The notes beneath the pieces were generated by a model that made no database searches, was not told the DNA's origin, and saw only the letters and a list, made by a program, of their open reading frames with translations. This document shows positions 2,188 to 63,783 of a stretch of DNA of 64,000 nucleotides, piece after piece. The number at the start of each line of letters is the position of its first letter. The first letter of the stretch is position 1. This DNA comes from an uncultured Candidatus Saccharibacteria bacterium. GTDB taxonomy: Bacteria; Patescibacteriota; Doudnabacteria; UBA920. The stretch is from contig CAZFQP010000003.1 of NCBI GenBank assembly GCA_964520505.1, forward strand, positions 16,738 through 80,737, given 5' to 3'. The position numbers and the translations under genes were made by a program.

Positions 2188-2273
2188 GATTTAAAAGAAT
2201 GACATGATTGACAAGAATGGTTGCGAAAATCTTGCTCAATCTTTTAATTCATTTAAATCATGTCAATAAATTT
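2188..2273 (+). promoter_or_regulatory. Conserved ~85-bp intergenic module copy 1: TTGACAAGAAT..inverted repeat..TTTAATTCATTTAAAT..TTGTCAATAAATT (putative promoter plus operator)
   Basis: ~85% identical to 3310-3406; contains -35-like TTGACA/TTGTCA hexamers and a degenerate 11-bp inverted repeat. Confidence 0.5.
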
Positions 2274-2738: not shown

Positions 2739-3326
2739 TTGACCAAAAATAATATGCAGGAAACAGAACACAAAAAAAATATTATTGGTTTGGTGGGTGA
2801 AAAGCTTGCCGGTAAGGACACCGCTGCCAATTATCTGGTGAAAAAATACGGCGCCGGACATTTTCGGTTTACCCATATTTTGGACGCGATATTGGAAGAT
2901 TTAGATATGCCCATTTCCAGAAAGAACGAAATTGATTTAGGCTTGTCATTGCGCAAAATTTTTGGCGCTCATGTTTTGGTGGATGCTCTGGGGCATCGCG
3001 TAAGTAAATCTTGGGAAAACTTAATTGTGGTCAATGGCATTCGTATGGACGAGTTGGATGTAGTAAAAGGTTGGGAAGCAAAAATTATTTATATTACCGC
3101 GCCGGTTGAGCTGCGTTTTGAGCGATACAATATGCGCCATGAAAAAGACGACGACGGAGTTATGGATATAAATGCTTTTAAAGTTCAAGAAACCGGCCCG
3201 ACCGAAGCCGCCATTCCCGAGCTCGGCAAACAGGCGGATTTTAGAATCGATAATGTCGGCAGTTTAGAGGAGTTGTATAAGAAAGTTGATGGAATCATTG
3301 AAAATTTAAAAGATTTAAAAGAATGA
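2739..3326 (+). CDS. P-loop nucleoside/nucleotide kinase-like protein (paralog 2)
   Basis: P-loop GEKLAGKDT; C-terminus SLEELYKKVDGIIENL homologous to paralog 1; same position relative to the repeated intergenic module. Confidence 0.5.
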   Translation: MTKNNMQETEHKKNIIGLVGEKLAGKDTAANYLVKKYGAGHFRFTHILDAILEDLDMPISRKNEIDLGLSLRKIFGAHVLVDALGHRVSKSWENLIVVNGIRMDELDVVKGWEAKIIYITAPVELRFERYNMRHEKDDDGVMDINAFKVQETGPTEAAIPELGKQADFRIDNVGSLEELYKKVDGIIENLKDLKE

Positions 3327-3406
3327 CATGATTGACAAGAATAGCTGCAGAAATTCTTGTCAATTGTTTAATTCATTTAAATGTTGTCAATAAATTTATT
3401 ATTTTT
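3310..3406 (+). promoter_or_regulatory. Conserved intergenic module copy 2 with perfect 11-bp inverted repeat TTGACAAGAAT-N10-ATTCTTGTCAA
   Basis: Direct comparison with 2188-2273; palindrome with 11-bp arms typical of a dimeric HTH repressor operator overlapping -35-like hexamers. Confidence 0.5.
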
Positions 3407-4153
3407 ATGAGTTTATTAAAATTTGGAAAATCCAAAAAGAATAAGAACGAACAACAACCGTCCAAAGGTCGTTTTATTGTTATTGATGGTACGGATGGTA
3501 GCGGTAAGGCCACGCAAACTAATTTGCTCGTGGAAGAGTTAAAGTTGGGAGGCTATGAAGTGGAAATGACAGATTTTCCTCAGTATGGGACAAAATCCGC
3601 AGGGCTGATTGAAGAATATTTAAACGGCAAATACGGACAGGTTGGTCCGGAGGCGGCGTCAATTTTTTACGCAATTGACAGGTTTGATGCTTCATTTAAA
3701 ATTCGCGAGTGGTTGGCTGCCGGAAAGATTGTTATTTCCAATCGTTACGTTACCGCCAACGCCGGACATCAAGGCGGAAAAATTGCCGATGATATGGATC
3801 GGTTAAAGTACTTTAAATGGCTGGATAATTTGGAATACAACATTTTTAACATCCCCAAACCGGATTTAAATATTATTTTGCATATGCCCGCGGAAATGGC
3901 GCAGGAGCTGGTGGATAAAAAATCCGCGGACGTCAGGGGTTATGCCAATGGTAAAAAAAGAGACTTGCATGAAGCCGATTTGAATCATTTGAAAAATGCC
4001 GAAAAAGTTTACTTGGAAATTGCCAAGCTTTTCCCTAACACCAAGCTGGTGGAATGCGTAACCAACGGTAAACTGCAGTCGCCCGCCGAAGTCCATAATA
4101 AAGTTTGGGAACTGGTTCGGAGAATAGCGTTAAAAGATATTAAACCAAAATAA
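3407..4153 (+). CDS. tmk: thymidylate kinase (dTMP kinase)
   Basis: FIVIDGTDGSGKATQ P-loop and DRY/lid region typical of Tmk; start moved to ATG 3407 (MSLLKFGK) because the upstream part of the track ORF is the intergenic repeat. Confidence 0.85.
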   Translation: MSLLKFGKSKKNKNEQQPSKGRFIVIDGTDGSGKATQTNLLVEELKLGGYEVEMTDFPQYGTKSAGLIEEYLNGKYGQVGPEAASIFYAIDRFDASFKIREWLAAGKIVISNRYVTANAGHQGGKIADDMDRLKYFKWLDNLEYNIFNIPKPDLNIILHMPAEMAQELVDKKSADVRGYANGKKRDLHEADLNHLKNAEKVYLEIAKLFPNTKLVECVTNGKLQSPAEVHNKVWELVRRIALKDIKPK

Positions 4154-5156: not shown

Positions 5157-5162
5157 ATACTA

Positions 5163-5236
5163 AAACACTAAATTACTAAATCTGCGGTTTTCGTATTTTC
5201 GATTATTTCGTATTTAGTAGAAATTGTTACAAACAA
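5163..5236. repeat. Nested-palindrome intergenic element (TACTAAAT...TTTCGTATTTAGTAGAA family) immediately upstream of folA start
   Basis: Arms TACTAAATCTG / CGTATTTAGTA; same terminal motif TTTCGTATTTAGTAGAA recurs at 26262-26288. Confidence 0.55.
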
Positions 5237-5237
5237 T

Positions 5238-6727: not shown

Positions 6728-7822
6728 ATGAATGAACTTATAAAACGGCTGGAGAATCTTAAAACCTCCATTCTAAATTTACAATCCAGTTTAAATTTGC
6801 CGCAAAAAGAGCAGCGGATTTTGGAATTGGAAGATAAAATGCAAGCAGCGGATTTTTGGGCCGATAACCAGACAGCACAAAAAATTTCCCAGGAGCATAA
6901 TCAATTAAAAAAGTTTTATGATTTTTGGGTTAGCCTGGGCAAACAAACCGAAGAGGTTTTGGAATTAGTTAAACACAATCAGGACGAGTCGGACGAAACA
7001 AAAAGTTATTTGGAAAAACAAGCGGACGATTTGGAAGAGGAGTATAAAAAACACAGGTTTGTGGCTCTGTTGTCTAAAAAGTATGACGACCATAACGCGA
7101 TTTTTTCTTTGCATTCCGGCGCCGGAGGAGTAGACGCGCAAGACTGGGCGGATATGCTGCTGAGAATGTTTTTGCGCTACGCGGAAAAGCAGGGTTTTAG
7201 CACGGAAATTTTGGAACTGTCCCGCGGTGAGCAAGGAGGTTTGAAAACTTGTGTGGTGGAAGTACGCGGGCCTTATGCTTATGGGCTGTTTAAAAGTGAA
7301 GCCGGCGTGCATCGCTTAGTTCGTTTGTCGCCGTTTAATCCTGCCCACACGCGCGAGACTTCTTTTGCCCTGCTGGAGCTGCTGCCGCTTTTGGAAGAGC
7401 AGGAAGAAATGAAAATTGACCCGAAAGATTTGAAAATTGAAGCCAATACTGCTTCCGGCCACGGCGGGCAATCGGTTAATACCACTTATTCCGCCATTCG
7501 CATTACGCATATCCCGTCAGGAATAAAGGTGAGCATTCAAAACGAGCGTTCCCAGCACCAGAACCGGGAAATAGCAATGAAGATTTTAACCGCCAAACTA
7601 AAAACTCTGGAAGAAGAAAGATTGCAAAAAGAAAAACAGGACATTCGCGGCGAATTTAAGTCCGCGGAGTGGGGGAATCAGATCCGCTCTTATGTCCTAC
7701 ATCCTTACAAAATGGTTAAAGACCACCGGACTGGAATGGAAACTTCCGATCCCGAGAGCGTGCTGAACGGAGAACTTAGTGAATTTGTGGAAAGTTATTT
7801 GGAACACTTCGCCTCAAAATAA
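6728..7822 (+). CDS. prfB: peptide chain release factor 2
   Basis: SPF tripeptide motif (RF2-specific) and GGQ motif; start set at MNELIKRL (ATG 6728); continuous frame, no programmed +1 frameshift site. Confidence 0.9.
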   Translation: MNELIKRLENLKTSILNLQSSLNLPQKEQRILELEDKMQAADFWADNQTAQKISQEHNQLKKFYDFWVSLGKQTEEVLELVKHNQDESDETKSYLEKQADDLEEEYKKHRFVALLSKKYDDHNAIFSLHSGAGGVDAQDWADMLLRMFLRYAEKQGFSTEILELSRGEQGGLKTCVVEVRGPYAYGLFKSEAGVHRLVRLSPFNPAHTRETSFALLELLPLLEEQEEMKIDPKDLKIEANTASGHGGQSVNTTYSAIRITHIPSGIKVSIQNERSQHQNREIAMKILTAKLKTLEEERLQKEKQDIRGEFKSAEWGNQIRSYVLHPYKMVKDHRTGMETSDPESVLNGELSEFVESYLEHFASK

Positions 7823-7837
7823 AAAATCTGGTATAAT

Positions 7838-7912
7838 GATTTTACGAAGTACGAATGAAGCGAACTTACGAAACTAGCACGTGTGCAAATTCGTAAGTTG
7901 TAAATATTCGTA
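7838..7912. repeat. Palindromic intergenic element, TTTTACGAAGTACGAAT...CGAACTTACGAA...ATTCGTAAGTT family (copy 1, partly degenerate), preceded by TATAAT
   Basis: Shares arms with copies at 25553-25638 and 26857-26943; sits immediately upstream of ftsE start. Confidence 0.6.
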
Positions 7913-8602: not shown

Positions 8603-8636
8603 GCACGAACACACGAACGACACTAAAGATACGAAA

Positions 8637-9008
8637 ATGGCGGAAATCTTTTATAAAGATGAAAGTTATAAAATAACCGGTGCGGTAATGAATGTTTTTA
8701 AAGCCTTGGGTTATGGCTATCAAGAAAAGTATTATTATCGGGCAATAAAAGAAGCCATTTTAAGTTTAGGTTTTAAGATAAAAGAACAAGTATTTACCCC
8801 TTTGTTGTATAATGGTAAATCTATCGGCAATTATTATTTAGACTTTTTGATTAATGATTCAATTGTATTGGAAATAAAAGTCAGCAACGAAATTTATCCA
8901 AGGCATATTAAACAAGTATTGGGTTATTTAACAGCCCATAATCTGAAATTGGGGATAATCGCCGCATTTACTAAGAATGGTGTAATTTTCAAAAGAGTAG
9001 TAAATTAA
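8637..9008 (+). CDS. GxxExxY family protein (PD-(D/E)xK nuclease-like)
   Basis: GYGYQEKYYYRAI (GxxExxY) motif and LEIKV core; start at MAEIFYKD; inserted between ftsE and ftsX and flanked by imperfect inverted GTGTTCGTG-type repeats (8603-8625 / 9019-9056). Confidence 0.7.
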   Translation: MAEIFYKDESYKITGAVMNVFKALGYGYQEKYYYRAIKEAILSLGFKIKEQVFTPLLYNGKSIGNYYLDFLINDSIVLEIKVSNEIYPRHIKQVLGYLTAHNLKLGIIAAFTKNGVIFKRVVN

Positions 9009-9061
9009 TAAGTACAAGTAGTGTGGTTCGTGGTATTTGTGCTTTCGTGCTATAAATAATT

Positions 9062-14307: not shown

Positions 14308-14472
14308 ATATGAAAATTAACAGATTAATTTTAAATTACAAAAATCAAATTCCAAATTTCAAATAAAATCCAAATAATCAAGTATCTAAATTTCCAAACA
14401 ATCACAGTGATTTTGAACCTTGTAATTTATTTGGTGTTTGGATTTTGGGATTTGATATTTTTTTGAAAAGGC

Positions 14473-25049: not shown

Positions 25050-25553
25050 ATGGTTTTGCCAATATTAACTTATCCGAATGAAATTTTAAGAAAACCGACC
25101 CAGCCGGTTAGTTTTCCCTTGTCCCCGGAAATAAAAAAGTTGACCAAGGATATGATAGACACCGTGCGCAATGCCGACGGGATTGGTTTGGCGGCGCCGC
25201 AGGTGGGTAAATCTGTTAAATTAATTGTTATTAATTTAGAAAAAAGCGGCATTCCGCTGATGGTTTTGTATAATGCTAAAGTAATTAGCCGCGGTTTTAA
25301 GAAAGTTGATATTGAAGAAGGCTGTTTGTCTATCCCAGGGATTTATGGCAATGTTCGCCGGCCAAAAAAGGTGACCGTAGAAGCTTATACAGCGGATGGA
25401 AAGAAAATAAAGTTTATAGATGACGGTTGGATTGCCCGAGTAGCTCAGCACGAAATTGACCATACAAATGGAATACTGATTATCGACCTGATTAAGAAGT
25501 ACACACAAGGAGAAGAGAAAGTAAAAGAGTGGAAGGAAAAGAAATTAATTTGA
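25050..25553 (+). CDS. def: peptide deformylase
   Basis: Three PDF motifs: GIGLAAPQVG, EGCLSIPG, HEIDHTNG. Confidence 0.92.
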   Translation: MVLPILTYPNEILRKPTQPVSFPLSPEIKKLTKDMIDTVRNADGIGLAAPQVGKSVKLIVINLEKSGIPLMVLYNAKVISRGFKKVDIEEGCLSIPGIYGNVRRPKKVTVEAYTADGKKIKFIDDGWIARVAQHEIDHTNGILIIDLIKKYTQGEEKVKEWKEKKLI

Positions 25554-25638
25554 TTTTACGAAGTACGAATACCTACGAACTTACGAAGTGAGCTCGGGTG
25601 GAAATTCGTAAGTTCGTAAAGGTTAGTACTTCGTAAAA
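25553..25638. repeat. Palindromic intergenic element copy 2 (TTTTACGAAGTACGAAT..CGAACTTACGAAG..ATTCGTAAGTTCGTAAAG..GTACTTCGTAAAAT), nested hairpins; ends 1 nt before the next start codon
   Basis: Outer arms TTTTACGAAGTAC / GTACTTCGTAAAA and inner arms CGAACTTACGAA / TTCGTAAGTTCG are exact reverse complements. Confidence 0.65.
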
Positions 25639-25639
25639 T

Positions 25640-26176
25640 ATGAAGTTTATTAAAGACCTGCTTTTTTTTGAAATTCAGACTACGGGGCAAAATGCCGACA
25701 AGGATTCTATTGTCCAATTGTCGGCGGTTTTGTTGGATAAGGATAATTTGCTGGAAAAAAATAATTTTAACAGCTATATTAAAGTTAGTTATTTAGATAG
25801 CGTGATTGCAGACCATGCGCGCCTACTGAACGTAGACCAAAATATGTTGCGTAAGAGCCCGAAGGTTTATGATTGTATTAAACAGTTTAATCACAAATTC
25901 GGCAACGATTTACTTTTGGCCAGTTATAGTTTTGACAATTTATTGTTCTTGAAAAACGCATTTAAAAAAGCTGTTGTCCCTTTTAATTATGATCCTCATA
26001 TTGTGCAGTTGTGGACTTTGGGATATATATATACTTTGAATTACGGCTTGAAAAAAATGCCAACGCTCAATACTTTTTTGGATTATTTTCGTTTAAAGTT
26101 AAAAAATCCGTTTGACTCAATGGAGCGAGCTCGCTTGGAAGCCGAGGTATTTAGAAAGATAATTAAAGAAGTATAG
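25640..26176 (+). CDS. DnaQ-like 3'-5' exonuclease paralog with degenerate catalytic motifs (likely inactive)
   Basis: Homologous to 26290 ORF (KDLLFFEIQTTG vs KDILLIDTEFTG; shared VQLSAVLLDK). Exo I D-x-E becomes E-x-Q; Exo III H...D replaced by F...R. Confidence 0.55.
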   Translation: MKFIKDLLFFEIQTTGQNADKDSIVQLSAVLLDKDNLLEKNNFNSYIKVSYLDSVIADHARLLNVDQNMLRKSPKVYDCIKQFNHKFGNDLLLASYSFDNLLFLKNAFKKAVVPFNYDPHIVQLWTLGYIYTLNYGLKKMPTLNTFLDYFRLKLKNPFDSMERARLEAEVFRKIIKEV

Positions 26177-26288
26177 GCTCTACTAAATACTAAAAAATAC
26201 AAAAAAGTACTAAATCAGAATTAATTACCGCTTTCGTCAGTACGGTTTAGTATCTTTAGTAGCATTTCGTATTTAGTAGAAGGAAATC
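26177..26288. repeat. Nested-palindrome element of the TACTAAATAC family (terminal 11-bp inverted repeats CTACTAAATAC / GTATTTAGTAG) between the two exonuclease paralogs
   Basis: Ends TTTCGTATTTAGTAGAAGG just upstream of the start codon, as at 5205-5236. Confidence 0.55.
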
Positions 26289-26289
26289 T

Positions 26290-26853
26290 ATGGATTTCAA
26301 CAAAGACATTTTATTGATTGACACTGAGTTTACTGGTTTTGATATTGATAAGCACGAAATTGTGCAGTTGGCCGCAGTGTTGCTGGATAAAAAAACCTTA
26401 AAGGAAAAAAAGTTTTTTTCTTCTTATATTAAGCCTCGGCGCTGGAAAACGCGCAATCGGGAATCGATGAAAGTGAATAACATTACTCTAGAAATGTTGC
26501 AAGGCGCGCCGGACTTAAAAGAGGTTTTAAAAAAATTTGACCGAACGTTTGGCCACAACGTCATTCAGGCTTTTTATGTCGGCTATAATGACAAACGTTT
26601 TTTACTGGAAAGCTATAGGCGCGCGGGACTAAAATGGCGGTTTGACTATCACTATTTTGAGCTTTGGGGTTTGTTTTATCCCTTTTTAGCCGTTAAAAAT
26701 AAACTTAAGACCATAAAAGATTTTGCCGGGTTTGGGATTGAATCGATGTTAAAAATTTTTAAAATTGAACAACCGGACAATTTGCATGATGCTTTAACTG
26801 ACTGCCGGGTGGAAGCGGAAATTTTAAGAAAAGTAATTAAACAAATAATTTAA
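26290..26853 (+). CDS. DEDDh-family 3'-5' exonuclease (DnaQ/oligoribonuclease-like), intact motifs
   Basis: Exo I IDTEFTG, Exo II YNDKRFL, Exo III HDALTDCRVEAE. Confidence 0.7.
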   Translation: MDFNKDILLIDTEFTGFDIDKHEIVQLAAVLLDKKTLKEKKFFSSYIKPRRWKTRNRESMKVNNITLEMLQGAPDLKEVLKKFDRTFGHNVIQAFYVGYNDKRFLLESYRRAGLKWRFDYHYFELWGLFYPFLAVKNKLKTIKDFAGFGIESMLKIFKIEQPDNLHDALTDCRVEAEILRKVIKQII

Positions 26854-26856
26854 CAG

Positions 26857-26943
26857 ACTTTACGAAGTACGAATTTATACTAACTTACGAAGAAAACTCG
26901 TAGGGGAATTCGTAAGTTCGTAAAGATTGGTACTTCGTAAAAT
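26857..26943. repeat. Palindromic intergenic element copy 3 (same family as 25553-25638), ends 2 nt before fmt start
   Basis: CTTTACGAAGTACGAAT...AACTTACGAAG...ATTCGTAAGTTCGTAAAG...GTACTTCGTAAAAT. Confidence 0.65.
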
Positions 26944-40319: not shown

Positions 40320-40396
40320 TTTATTTTGGTTTTAAGATAACTGTCTTTTAAGAAGTATATCAGATGCAATTCAAAATACTCAACTCAAACCAAAAT

Positions 40397-40427
40397 ATAT
40401 TCTGGTATTCTGCAGAATATCAGAATG
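40397..40427. promoter_or_regulatory. 31-bp element ATATTCTGGTATTCTGCAGAATATCAGAATG containing a 26-bp near-perfect palindrome; candidate ArsR-family operator upstream of the antiporter gene
   Basis: Direct repeat of 40706-40736 (one mismatch); central ATTCTGCAGAAT is a perfect palindrome. Confidence 0.55.
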
Positions 40428-40689
40428 ATTTAGTGAAGGCAAAAAACTTTTTTCCGTAGGGCGAGAGGGAATGTAAAACCTCCCTGTCTCGATATTTTTT
40501 GTTGAGCAGTCCGGCTTGAACCAGTTTTCTGGTATGTTCAGAAATAGTTTTAATATTGCATTTTAACTGGGTTGAAATTTGATTCAGTGTAATTCCTGAG
40601 GATTTTTCGACCAAAAATAAAATCTCAATGCGCCGATGGTTGGCGGCTCCTTTAAAGTATCTCTCTAGTTGTTTGCAAGTCTTTTGCAC
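40420..40689 (-). CDS. ArsR/SmtB-family transcriptional regulator
   Basis: HTH region ANHRRIEILFLV...ITLNQISTQLKCNIKTISEHTRKLVQAGLL. Confidence 0.8.
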   Translation of the reverse strand: MQKTCKQLERYFKGAANHRRIEILFLVEKSSGITLNQISTQLKCNIKTISEHTRKLVQAGLLNKKYRDREVLHSLSPYGKKFFAFTKSF

Positions 40690-40705
40690 AAAATTCCCAT
40701 TATTA

Positions 40706-40736
40706 TATTCTGGTATTCTGCAGAATGTCAGAATGT
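40706..40736. promoter_or_regulatory. Second copy of the 31-bp palindromic operator-like element, upstream of the arsR-family gene (autoregulation site candidate)
   Basis: See 40397-40427. Confidence 0.55.
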
Positions 40737-40744
40737 TTTTAGGG

Positions 40745-48433: not shown

Positions 48434-48728
48434 GGGCAGGTAGCGAAGCGGTCAAACGCGACTGACTGTGAAAGATTGCAGCTCTTAAAAGAAATTTTAA
48501 GATGTCCTCTCTGGGATAACGGTGAAAGCTAAATCAAATCAAACTGACAAGCTAATACCGTGGGAACCCTGATAATTTATCGGGGAGCGCCGTAGAGACT
48601 AGATACCAGAGTACCTAAAATCTTAAACGATTATGGTAAAGATATAGTCCACCCCTTTTGGAAACATTTGGATAAGTGAAATCAGTTGGCTTATGCCTTC
48701 ATAGGTTCGAATCCTATCCTGCCCACCA
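48434..48728 (+). tRNA. tRNA-Tyr (anticodon GTA) interrupted by a ~209-nt group I intron in the anticodon loop (exon 1 48434-48469, intron 48470-48678, exon 2 48679-48728)
   Basis: Exons reconstruct a class-II tRNA closely matching bacterial tRNA-Tyr (D-loop AGCGGTCAAA, long variable arm, T-arm AUAGGUUCGAAUCCUAU, CCA encoded). Exon 1 ends in U pairing with intron IGS GCAG (U-G), intron ends in G, and the intron contains GTAGAGACTAGA matching the P7/J8-7 core of bacterial tRNA group I introns (e.g. Azoarcus tRNA-Ile intron). Confidence 0.7.
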
Positions 48729-48763
48729 TAAAAAAACTTTCAGAAATCTGAAAGTTTTTTTAT
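48729..48763 (+). terminator. Terminator AAAAAAACTTTCAGAAATCTGAAAGTTTTTTT
   Basis: Perfect 9-bp stem between A- and T-runs. Confidence 0.75.
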
Positions 48764-50691: not shown

Positions 50692-50798
50692 AAATTTTTC
50701 AATTTAGATATTATTTAGATTTTTGTAATGAATTTCTAAAATTTCTTTATTTCCTAATTTCGTTCGGATAGAAATTGAGAAACTTTGAAATTGAGAAA

Positions 50799-62760: not shown

Positions 62761-62872
62761 TTCCTGACCTGCCCCACTTGCGGCCTTTGCGGCCGTTAGC
62801 GATGGAGCATATTGCGACTGCCAGCCCTCCTAGGAGGGAAAGAGCAATCATTAGGATGGTTGTCTTGTTCAT
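62756..62872 (-). CDS. possible 38-aa hydrophobic peptide (MNKTTILMIALSLLGGLAVAICSIANGRKGRKWGRSGN)
   Basis: Short ORF directly downstream of the 76-aa membrane protein gene on the minus strand; GC-rich; below track cutoff. Confidence 0.3.
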   Translation of the reverse strand: MNKTTILMIALSLLGGLAVAICSIANGRKGRKWGRSGN

Positions 62873-62895
62873 CACACCCCCAGGAGGTATACGCG

Positions 62896-63126
62896 CTACA
62901 GGCCGAAAGTGCTACCCAGGGGCAGCTCCTTCTTTTCCTTGTTCTCGGCGCGGCTCTCTACGATATGAGTTATCAGGAGCGTGATGCCGCCAACGGCAGC
63001 CGTTACACCCATAGGAACCAGCCAGTCGGACAGATGCAGGTTCATCAAATCCTGGAAGGCGATGATGCAAAGGCCGAGAAGGCCGACAACAATCATCATC
63101 CAGCCAATAATCTTCCAAATAATCAT
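62896..63126 (-). CDS. small 2-TM membrane protein (76 aa), GC-rich gene with SD AAGGAG
   Basis: Hydrophobic helices; overlapping plus-strand track ORFs translate to Arg/Pro-rich nonsense. Confidence 0.45.
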   Translation of the reverse strand: MIIWKIIGWMMIVVGLLGLCIIAFQDLMNLHLSDWLVPMGVTAAVGGITLLITHIVESRAENKEKKELPLGSTFGL

Positions 63127-63235
63127 AACAGAACTCCTTACGTGGGATTTCGGACTTTGCAGGAAAGCGAAAAGACATTCGCCCTCCTTAATCTATCGCG
63201 ATTAAAATAGCACTGGGGCGCTAATTTGTCAAAGG

Positions 63236-63290: not shown

Positions 63291-63783
63291 TAGCGTGACC
63301 AACACTACTTGAAATGTCCCCCTTAAAATAACTAGTAATTATACTCCTTTTTTAGATGATTGTCAACCGTCGGTAAATAATTAACTCATAAATAAGCCAA
63401 AATAATTGTGGAAAAGTGGTATTGCCAAAGGATTAGGCTTGTATTATAATTTATTTAGTTCTTCAAGCGCTGAACTGGCATACCAAGTCAGGGAGCTTGA
63501 AACAATTGAATCAATAAATCTAAAACTGGTTCTAGAGACTGTTTTTAGATTAAAAGTCCGGTCTTTTGGTAAAAGGCCGGAAAACTGGGACGGAAACGTC
63601 TTGGAAAAAACCAAGGCCCCGGGATTTACTTATTATTTTTTATAATAAGTGGATCTCGGGGTTTTGTTATTAGCAATCCGAATTTACGAATGCATCCGAA
63701 TTCTCCGAATGTCAGAATTAGGGTCATTCGGATAAAATTCGTTGTATTCGGATTAAGAATTTAATATTAATAGAGCAACACTA

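Follow-up and report, generated by a model that had tools for sequence, protein, structure and literature searches.

The window analyzed here, which is the whole 64,000-nt stretch at positions 16,738-80,737 of contig CAZFQP010000003.1 (assembly GCA_964520505.1), contains repeats of ~85 nt that occupy the exact space between the stop codon of one gene and the ATG of the next co-directional gene and whose arms each comprise approximately four copies of a 6-8 nt word. We hold, with moderate confidence, that these repeats are gene-less members, resembling transposable elements of the miniature inverted-repeat type (MITEs), of a lineage-specific palindromic family of mobile elements, the full-length members of which carry a gene for a PD-(D/E)XK nuclease. 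A sequence-only reading of the window had described dispersed nested palindromes of several families, similar to repetitive extragenic palindromes (REPs) or MITEs, and had regarded them as promoter carriers, RNase sites, or translation-control structures rather than as random selfish insertions. All of the elements that it described are present and their dispersed, multi-family character is supported, the phenomenon being much broader than described; its interpretation as a whole was partly supported.

Word-array hairpins in stop-to-start junctions

The first family (family A, arms of TACGAA words), reported as an ~85-bp element with at least three copies upstream of ftsE, the first exonuclease paralog (exo1), and fmt, is marked in the window by the 16-mer TTTACGAAGTACGAAT. 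This 16-mer has exactly three perfect occurrences on the + strand (7841, 25555, and 26859), and its reverse-complement arm is seen at 25622, 26926, and, weakly, 7889. When ≤3 mismatches were allowed, eight matches were found compared to 0.69 expected, a number that was reached in none of 100 shuffles. Predicted RNA folds of the three copies (A1, A2, and A3) have energies of -28, -40.7, and -37.1 kcal/mol and z-scores of -4.4, -7.8, and -7.0, respectively. The second family (family B, ACTAAAT words), reported before folA and the second exonuclease gene (exo2), is likewise real: the copy before exo2 (B2; 26177-26289) folds with a z-score of -4.4, and the copy before folA (B1; 5157-5237) is decayed, its fold being no better than that of shuffles (z -0.5). 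The CCGAAT/ATTCGG element reported before thrS (family C, CCGAAT words) folds with a z-score of -3.0. Pfam searches confirmed the neighbors of these elements, namely release factor gene/ftsE, thyA/folA, and def/exo1/exo2/fmt. The statement that copies end within a few nt of an ATG applies to A2 (0 nt) and A3 (2 nt), but not to the other elements of the sequence-only reading, which end 10-22 nt away. What that reading did not note is that each element begins as near to the upstream stop codon, such that the whole intercistronic gap is filled. Other gaps in the window contain canonical GC-rich terminators with T-runs and TTGACA/TGnTATAAT promoters, and several more contain word arrays of their own.

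Copies outside of the window were identified by scanning the species-representative genome collection of GTDB, which does not include the genome of the window and in which its closest relative is CAYZEI01 (74-79% nucleotide identity), with a gapped pattern of the family-A left arm. A total of 72 stretches matched, every one of them in a set of ~11 metagenome-assembled genomes (MAGs) that carry the labels Candidatus Doudnabacteria, Minisyncoccia, or (TPA) Saccharibacteria; the same pattern had no matches in viral contigs. Of the 71 non-redundant complete copies, JARLHZ01 has at least 26, while CAIWKW01 and CAYZEI01 have 10 apiece; across the ~11 Doudnabacteria-like genomes, the number per genome is at least 5-26. 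In the consensus, the left half comprises A-N-TTTACGAAGTACGAA, a 4-nt bulge (mostly C-R-R-G), and TACGAACTTACGAA, the loop is often GTTTGTNC, and the right half comprises TTCGTAAGTTCGTA, a 4-nt bulge (mostly AAAT or AAGA), and TTCGTACTTCGTAAA-N-T.

The placement of these copies is not random. A long open reading frame (ORF) stops ≤30 nt upstream and an ATG-initiated ORF begins ≤30 nt downstream on the same strand in 51 of the 71 copies, with the remainder located mostly before short ribosomal-protein ORFs or at locus edges. Overall, ~85% of copies span the entire interval from a stop codon to the following ATG of co-directional genes. The TTACGAAG...CGTAA core lies a median of 3 nt from the stop codon and 6 nt from the ATG. 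Of these 51 copies, 42 leave ≤20 nt of residual spacer, whereas gaps of <20 nt make up only ~16% of the co-directional gaps in this DNA. Direction relative to transcription, as judged by the two asymmetric bulges, is also strongly biased (41 vs. 9 copies, p = 6e-6), and nearest neighbors reside in the same genome in 31 cases compared to 13 expected. The idea that the element supplies the upstream stop codon was rejected, since stop usage upstream of family A (TAA 63%, TAG 29%, TGA 8%) equals genome-wide usage.

The word-array hairpin is a general architecture rather than the property of one family. Orthologous junctions across species are occupied by hairpins of similar size but differing words (TACGAA, TACTAA, CCGAAT, TAGCGA, CACGGAT, CTAATTA, and AAGTAAC), and in this comparison one junction was a tandem array pure and simple and just two were empty. 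Of 237 non-redundant gaps of 50-220 nt between co-directional genes, 97 have a 5-mer that occurs two or more times in the 5' part and the reverse complement of which occurs two or more times in the 3' part (2 in shuffles), and approximately half of those 97 are built from words that differ from TACGAA. In the S10/spc ribosomal-protein operon of JARLHZ01 (assigned with Pfam), each of the 13 junctions examined has a spacer of 55-110 nt; a fold with z < -3 was obtained for 10 of these, five belong to family A, and two further families are each represented twice. At L010:4223-4291, the stop-to-ATG gap is a run of CTATAAGAC repeated perfectly six times in tandem, without an inverted counterpart, and the orthologous junction in JARLHZ01 is a family-A hairpin. 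At L002:255-342, also in JARLHZ01, a TAGGAAT-word hairpin has the loop GTTTGTCC of most family-A copies in that genome despite differing from family A in every arm word.

The filled state is derived, with elements having entered junctions whose length in more distant relatives is 1-10 nt. In three such relatives (L16 78-81% identical), the S10/spc junctions are ordinary throughout, consisting of TAA, 1-10 nt, and ATG. Occupancy is patchy and copies are decayed in CAZEKH01 and in a CG10 Doudnabacteria MAG (loci L093 and L094), which also carry a TACGGA-word variant of the two-plus-two word layout. The element is positioned directly 3' of the stop codon and a short ancestral spacer (gat, atat) stays before the ATG.

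Elements are also swapped, as complete units, between strains that are closely related. This was evaluated with contigs that encode identical Exo2, FolA, or FtsE proteins, two of which (L074 and L077) represent the window's own strain and the others of which are ~96% identical. The exo1/exo2 junction holds a family-A element, orthologous to the CAYZEI01 copy, in three ~96% samples and the family-B element B2 in the window, with the replacement beginning at the stop codon's third base and reaching AATCT-ATG. The ftsE/ftsX junction holds an 88-nt GCAGATG-word hairpin in L086 and a 459-nt insert with a GxxExxY gene (see below) in the window; here the flanks are 97-99% identical and the breakpoints are at stop +4 nt and ATG -5 nt. 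For rpsB/tsf, the contig available for comparison is 99.7% identical and hence was uninformative, and a strain look-up for ORF 62812-63210 returned no record.

A GxxExxY nuclease gene between the same arms

In three species, 'split' family-A arms flank ~470 bp downstream of ftsZ, and the inner ORF encodes a GxxExxY protein (TIGR04256). A tblastn search identified two more homologs, one in JARLHZ01 with family-B arms (L020) and one in the window (8637-9008) with CACGAA arms. In this first data set, all five GxxExxY genes, of which those at L011, L038, and L064 have family-A arms, are located between arms of word families that are also found without a gene. When the gene is removed from the window element (8603-9061), its arms pair at -31.3 kcal/mol (z -5.6). 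The window gene is missing from strain L086, and a 76% identical ortholog with the same arms is present at the same ftsE/ftsX junction in L176.

We then turned to homologs at 80 metagenomic loci (43-55% identical to the window protein), 77 of which had enough flanking sequence, as an independent test. Alignment of the 90 nt upstream of the gene with the reverse complement of the 90 nt downstream gave a score of 16.9, compared to 7.3 for shuffles and 9.3 for a direct-repeat control, and 52 of the 77 loci had an inverted-arm z ≥ 4. TAC[GTA]AA words numbered 2.5 and 2.1 per 90-nt flank as opposed to 0.08 in control windows. Moreover, 55-59 of the 77 loci have co-directional neighbors, with a stop codon or ATG ~43-44 nt from the gene. 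GxxExxY genes are generally flanked by inverted arms of TACGAA-like words. Since the arms flank a promoterless nuclease ORF, the full-length unit is [stop] - arm - nuclease ORF - arm - [ATG], and the elements of the sequence-only reading are the same arms without the gene. The earlier preference for functional elements rather than selfish insertions was therefore not upheld: the elements invade junctions that are tight in relatives, swap as units, and have arms in common with elements that carry a nuclease gene.

All five proteins match PF13366 (PDDEXK_3), the window protein at 93 bits against a cut-off of 22, and the relatives match TIGR04256 at 94-95 bits. D69, E79, K81, and the glutamate of the GxxExxY motif (E30) are invariant among 36 homologs. 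An AlphaFold (AF2) model of the window protein has a predicted local distance difference test (pLDDT) score of 96 and adopts a PD-(D/E)XK fold, with Cas4, lambda-exonuclease-like proteins, splicing endonucleases, and Hjc/RecU resolvases as structural neighbors. The best superposition was with the Hjc-type resolvase 2eo0 (root-mean-square deviation of ~3 A over ~100 columns), and the top matches by E-value were Cas4 and lambda-exonuclease-like proteins; Foldseek E-values of 0.05-0.09 indicate likeness at the superfamily level only. A sequence search of the PDB with the GxxExxY protein returned no match. PF13366 is listed as 'function unknown' in a survey of the PD-(D/E)XK superfamily (PMC3424549), and a full-text literature search recovered no description of these repeats or of their association with GxxExxY.

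Elements of the window and neighboring features

Positions of hairpin elements and associated features, numbered from the first nucleotide of the window
Feature	Position	Strand	Context
A1	7838..7912	+	TACGAA-word hairpin at the junction of the release-factor gene (stop 7820-7822) and ftsE (ATG 7926)
Extended -10-like box TGGTATAAT	7829..7837	+	Directly 5' of A1, outside the repeat
A2	25553..25639	+	Complete TACGAA-word hairpin occupying the def/exo1 gap
A3	26857..26943	+	Complete TACGAA-word hairpin occupying the exo2/fmt gap
B1	5157..5222	+	ACTAAAT/TTTCGTA hybrid-word element at the thyA/folA junction
B2	26179..26283	+	Family-B hairpin at the exo1/exo2 junction
C	63675..63760	+	CCGAAT/ATTCGG-word hairpin in the thrS leader
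TTGACAAG/CATGTCAA-word hairpin	2188..2273	+	Occupies the gap from stop (2185-2187) to ATG (2274); z -2.9
Second TTGACAAG-word hairpin	3300..3400	+	Next ATG at 3408; z -3.1
AATTTC/GAAATT-word hairpin	50692..50798	-	rpsB/tsf junction; z -3.2
CAAAT/ATTTG-word inverted repeat	14308..14472	-	Co-directional gap; weak fold (z -1.5), membership tentative
Left arm of full-length element	8603..8636	+	GCACGAA/CACGAA/TACGAA words; element lies between ftsE and ftsX
GxxExxY/PF13366 (PDDEXK_3) gene	8637..9008	+	123 amino acids, in the 'loop' of the element; Pfam E = 1.9e-26
Right arm of full-length element	9009..9050	+	TTCGTG/TTCGTGC words; 11 nt before the ftsX ATG (9062)

Several of these elements can be traced in relatives. 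The right outer arm of A1 is degenerate, and an orthologous copy is present in L013; the TGGTATAAT box 5' of A1, which is a consensus match only, is kept in L013 and in strains L086 and L087, and A1 is the sole element preceded by such a conserved box. A2 comprises an outer stem of 17 bp, a 4x4 internal loop, and an inner stem of 14 bp, and has orthologs in L057, L059, and L021. At the exo2/fmt junction, the site of A3 in the window, CAYZEI01 carries a CCGAAT hairpin and CAYVNU01 has no element (TAAATG). In the window strain, ~10 nt are missing from the left terminus of B1, other strains reading GTT TAG TCTCTACTAAATAC.... Family C also occurs at L057:3927-4024 and L016:5030-5129, and the word family of the 2188..2273 hairpin recurs in JARLHZ01 and PFAK01 loci. 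One ORF, with its end at 3326, runs ~8 codons into the left arm of the TTGACAAG-word hairpin and terminates at a TGA inside the arm, and automatic longest-ORF calls stretch neighboring genes into the repeats via TTG starts (2208, 3332, and 7913).

The hairpins are themselves associated with other insertions. In PLYC01 (L025, L029, L031, L037, L046, and L070), at least six independent family-A copies carry, at the same GTAC in their outer arm, a second MITE of ~95 nt whose termini are CCTGCCCGCCAAAG ... CTTTGGCGGGCAGG; given this number of independent insertions at one GTAC, the PLYC01 MITE targets the family-A hairpin specifically. In ~96% strains (L073:1384-1612 and L075:859-1087; window site 25640-25644), a classical MITE of 229 nt is located at the start of exo1, directly after A2. 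It has terminal inverted repeats CCCAGTAATACAACCTCCCAT / ATGGGAGGTTGATATACTGGG and flanking TGAA that is apparently duplicated, and exo1 with this insert appears to begin at GTG.

The two exonuclease paralogs between def and fmt (25640-26853) are of the DEDD/RNase T type. Where the def-fmt hairpins are all family A, their loops are related (AGCTCGGGTG, AGCTCGCGTG, and AACTCGTAGG), which suggests that an 'exonuclease + hairpin' unit was tandemly duplicated between def and fmt.

Two ATTCTG/CAGAAT palindromes (40396-40431 and 40704-40739) that are 94% identical flank a small minus-strand gene at 40420-40689. The sequence-only reading had noted sequence common to the thrS element and an ArsR operator region; the 12-mer GAATGTCAGAAT is indeed present both in these palindromes (40723) and in the thrS-leader hairpin (63707), although it was picked after the fact. 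CAGAAT-word hairpins also occupy three ribosomal-protein junctions in CAYVNU01 (L053).

A tRNA-like gene (GGGCAGG...CCTGCCCACCA) at 48440-48740 on the + strand is split by a probable group I intron. The corresponding RF00028 match in Rfam (48459-48671) scored 47.4 bits, just below the gathering score of 50 (E = 4e-11), and the tRNA was called by neither ARAGORN nor the gathering-threshold scan. At that threshold, Rfam 15 identified only three tRNAs in the window and no family matching the elements, and in E-value mode it returned only sub-threshold look-alikes of microRNA precursors.

Competing readings and comparison with known systems

Elements that are retained between strains are strongly constrained. 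Between the window and ~96% strains, 5 of 361 element sites differ (A1 4/102, A2 0/86 relative to strain L073, A3 1/92 relative to the same strain, and B1 0/81 across three haplotypes), compared to 165 of 2262 third codon positions and 38 of 447 sites in other intergenic DNA (Fisher p = 1.5e-6 and 2.5e-6, respectively). This is an approximately sixfold slower divergence, and the loops and bulges of A2, A3, and B1 are likewise without differences. Between species, loops and bulges show little conservation, with an identity of 0.52 for orthologous and 0.43 for non-orthologous pairs, whereas the arms are near-identical everywhere.

The main rival reading, which we consider unlikely, accounts for this constraint by taking the elements to be primarily host cis-acting intercistronic RNA stem-loops, i.e., RNase III-type processing sites, 3' stabilizers, or termination-reinitiation devices, with mobility being secondary or apparent. 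The occupancy of stop-to-ATG gaps in essential, highly expressed operons, the geometry of a 17-bp lower stem, 4x4 internal loop, and 14-bp upper stem, the orientation bias (41 vs. 9), and a divergence ~6-fold lower than that of third codon positions and other intergenic DNA, with unchanged loops and bulges in A2, A3, and B1, are all consistent with such a role. Likewise, genes for RNase III and RNase Y exist in the clade, and Shine-Dalgarno (SD) motifs are rare. Specifically, SD-like motifs (GGAG, GAGG, AGGA, or AAGG at -22 to -4) precede only ~14-15% of called genes in the window and loci, and the clade therefore seems to rely little on SD-led initiation.

However, an RNA-specific signal was absent from the elements. 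Owing to the repetition of the words, RNAalifold chose an incorrect pairing register for the 62 copies to which it was applied, and the structure was therefore set by hand as two helices, with 93% of cells paired. Covariation on this structure was not above that of shuffles, mismatches had no strand bias (24 G·U-type vs. 25 A·C-type) and hence no excess of G·U on the sense strand, and the sense strand folded no better than the antisense strand in family A or in other families. The arms are therefore conserved as sequence and not via compensatory change, and the palindrome is symmetric at the DNA level. Their conservation across species far exceeds structural need, and hybrid copies exist with arms mismatched in every word, as do decayed copies that no longer fold (B1; L093). 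In addition, relatives manage with junctions of 1-10 nt, and these arms are also found ~400 nt apart on either side of a nuclease gene. The host RNA and mobile-element readings are not mutually exclusive, since a mobile element could have been co-opted.

That the elements are conventional MITEs, derived by internal deletion from a DDE-type insertion sequence and persisting as neutral junk wherever tolerated, strikes us as improbable. The terminal inverted repeats are long, the elements are small and number in the tens per genome, other MITEs are nested in them, and nearest neighbors are in excess in the same genome (31 vs. 13 expected), all of which fits this description. Nevertheless, no orthologous filled or empty site has a target-site duplication, and no transposase is located between matching arms in 530 kb of loci, where GxxExxY is the sole gene found. 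The extreme preference for residual spacers of ≤20 nt, when gaps of <20 nt represent ~16% of co-directional gaps, and the strong constraint within species also count against this reading.

We give still less credence to the elements being DNA-level arrays of binding sites for a regulator or nucleoid protein, comparable to the operator-like sites near the ArsR-type gene (40396/40704), that control transcription across junctions. Words conserved as sequence on both strands, a palindromic layout like that of tandem operators, and the 12-mer common with the 40723 palindrome would suit this reading. Against it, dozens of different words share one layout in a ~1 Mb genome, word spacings of 7, 11, and 8 nt are not helically phased, elements are located inside operons without promoters, and the replacement of one word family by another at the same junction is tolerated. 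Lastly, a role as intrinsic terminators or promoter modules, the latter being the 'promoter carriers' of the sequence-only reading, can be set aside as extremely improbable despite the stable hairpins and the TGGTATAAT box before A1, given that a T-run before the stem and an A-run after it have the wrong polarity in both orientations, that stems are AT-rich while genuine GC-rich terminators with T-runs occupy other window gaps, and that the elements have no TTGACA/TGnTATAAT promoter, with -10-like boxes not enriched upstream of copies (30%) relative to control stops (23%).

Several observations also weigh against the mobile, nuclease-linked family that we favor. No direct repeat indicative of target-site duplication was found at the ends of the 71 copies or at filled-vs-empty junctions, and no insertion footprint was found. 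That whole elements, including their loops, are strongly conserved over short times is unexpected for purely selfish DNA, and host function could be the primary reason that the elements persist. The 80 metagenomic loci encode relatives of proteins already found inside hairpins and are a biased sample of PF13366. Many word families, TTGACAA, GATATT, and TAGGAAT among them, were not encountered together with a GxxExxY gene. The gene could be mere cargo that lands in hairpin loops.

In the mechanism that we propose for the nuclease-linked family, the arms would be the recognition sites of the GxxExxY nuclease, which would mobilize or exchange elements at the DNA level, possibly by acting on an extruded hairpin or cruciform that is cut at its base. 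Copies at junctions may survive in that the transcript would fold into a self-contained stem (-37 to -41 kcal/mol), the base of which would bring the upstream stop and the downstream start together, and translational coupling would thereby be preserved in an SD-poor lineage. The strong conservation within species may then reflect selection on the folded, harmless or co-opted state. More tentatively, and as a possibility to which we lend less weight than to the family itself, GxxExxY (PF13366) proteins may be the nucleases of an unrecognized class of mobile element, the autonomous form of which, a promoterless nuclease cistron between inverted arrays of TACGAA-like words, inserts precisely between stop and start codons and the gene-less derivatives of which fill most tight junctions, among them those of the entire S10/spc operon, in a clade of the candidate phyla radiation (CPR); the transcript hairpin would allow reinitiation, rendering insertion nearly neutral, and once fixed an element would come under selection.

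If correct, this interpretation would provide a testable role for PF13366/GxxExxY, a widespread PD-(D/E)XK family still listed as 'unknown' (PMC3424549), and would define an autonomous/non-autonomous mobile pair with an unusual niche, the operon stop-start junction. A genome-reduced CPR clade tolerates or uses stable hairpins of ~90 nt between nearly all cistrons of its ribosomal-protein operon, where elsewhere a few nt are found, and such junctions bear on how internal cistrons are translated in SD-poor lineages. The elements also account for recurrent trouble in the assembly and annotation of CPR genomes, including wrongly assigned start codons and ORFs that extend into repeats.

The closest known system is REPIN-RAYT (REP doublets forming hairpins and the REP-associated tyrosine transposase), from which the elements differ in unit structure, enzyme family, and niche. 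REPINs are built from two inverted REPs, each of which is a short, imperfectly palindromic sequence that has a conserved 5' GTAG (PMC3116915; PMC3337134). Both systems comprise non-autonomous, hairpin-forming extragenic repeats of 70-110 nt with tens or more copies per genome that are inherited within a lineage and maintained for long periods, and in both the gene for the presumed mobilizing enzyme has a low copy number and is itself flanked by repeats. In contrast, the arms described here are direct runs of TACGAA words that are not self-complementary, the termini are A-N-TTTACGAAG with no GTAG, copies are positioned precisely from stop to start in one preferred orientation, and the gene encodes a PD-(D/E)XK (GxxExxY) protein of 120-135 amino acids rather than a Y1/HUH transposase; a regular-expression search for the HUH...Y motif had no match in the 530 kb of loci and the window.

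As in MITEs, the elements have terminal inverted repeats, a small size, and multiple copies. Correia elements of Neisseria have 26-nt terminal repeats and a TA target duplication, can create promoters and IHF sites, and are transcribed into hairpins that are bound or cleaved by RNase III, altering expression of neighboring genes (PMC2649163, PMC2229807, PMC10969869). They resemble the present elements in being short, bounded by inverted repeats, near gene ends, and co-transcribed with neighbors, but the present elements have another terminal sequence, no TA duplication, promoter, or IHF-type core, and a far narrower niche.

Integron attC sites are characterized by RYYYAAC/GTTRRRY core sites, asymmetric extrahelical bases, a neighboring IntI integrase, and accessory cassettes in an array. 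Both are nested palindromes, imperfect and 57-141 nt in length, that lie between promoterless ORFs of the same direction, and structure that is kept while sequence varies, exchange of whole units at precise boundaries, and a promoterless ORF (here GxxExxY) as cassette are common to both. Here, however, the right arm is AAGTTCGTAAA / GGTTAGTAC with no GTTRRRY at the 3' boundary, no RYYYAAC core, and no asymmetric extrahelical bases, no integrase was seen, and the neighbors belong to core housekeeping operons (def, fmt, ftsE, thyA/folA, and ribosomal-protein genes) rather than to an accessory array.

Intercistronic RNase III sites of phage T7 and the REPs that stabilize mRNA (malE-malF) are hairpins between cistrons of polycistronic mRNA. 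The T7 sites have the same succession of lower stem, internal loop, and upper stem between cistrons, a functional analogy only, but the elements described here are multi-copy, mobile, and without a signature of the RNA strand. In TIGR-Tas (tandem interspaced guide RNA) arrays, edge and loop repeats of 8-12 nt alternate with 9-nt spacers 5-15 times beside a Tas gene with a Nop domain (PMC12045711). The elements were rejected as TIGR arrays, being single hairpins without 9-nt spacers at housekeeping junctions; membership in integron attC sites, Correia elements, or TIGR arrays fails in each case on defining features. With respect to the enzyme, PD-(D/E)XK homing endonucleases and Hjc/RecU resolvases have the same catalytic fold as the GxxExxY model and are of similar size.

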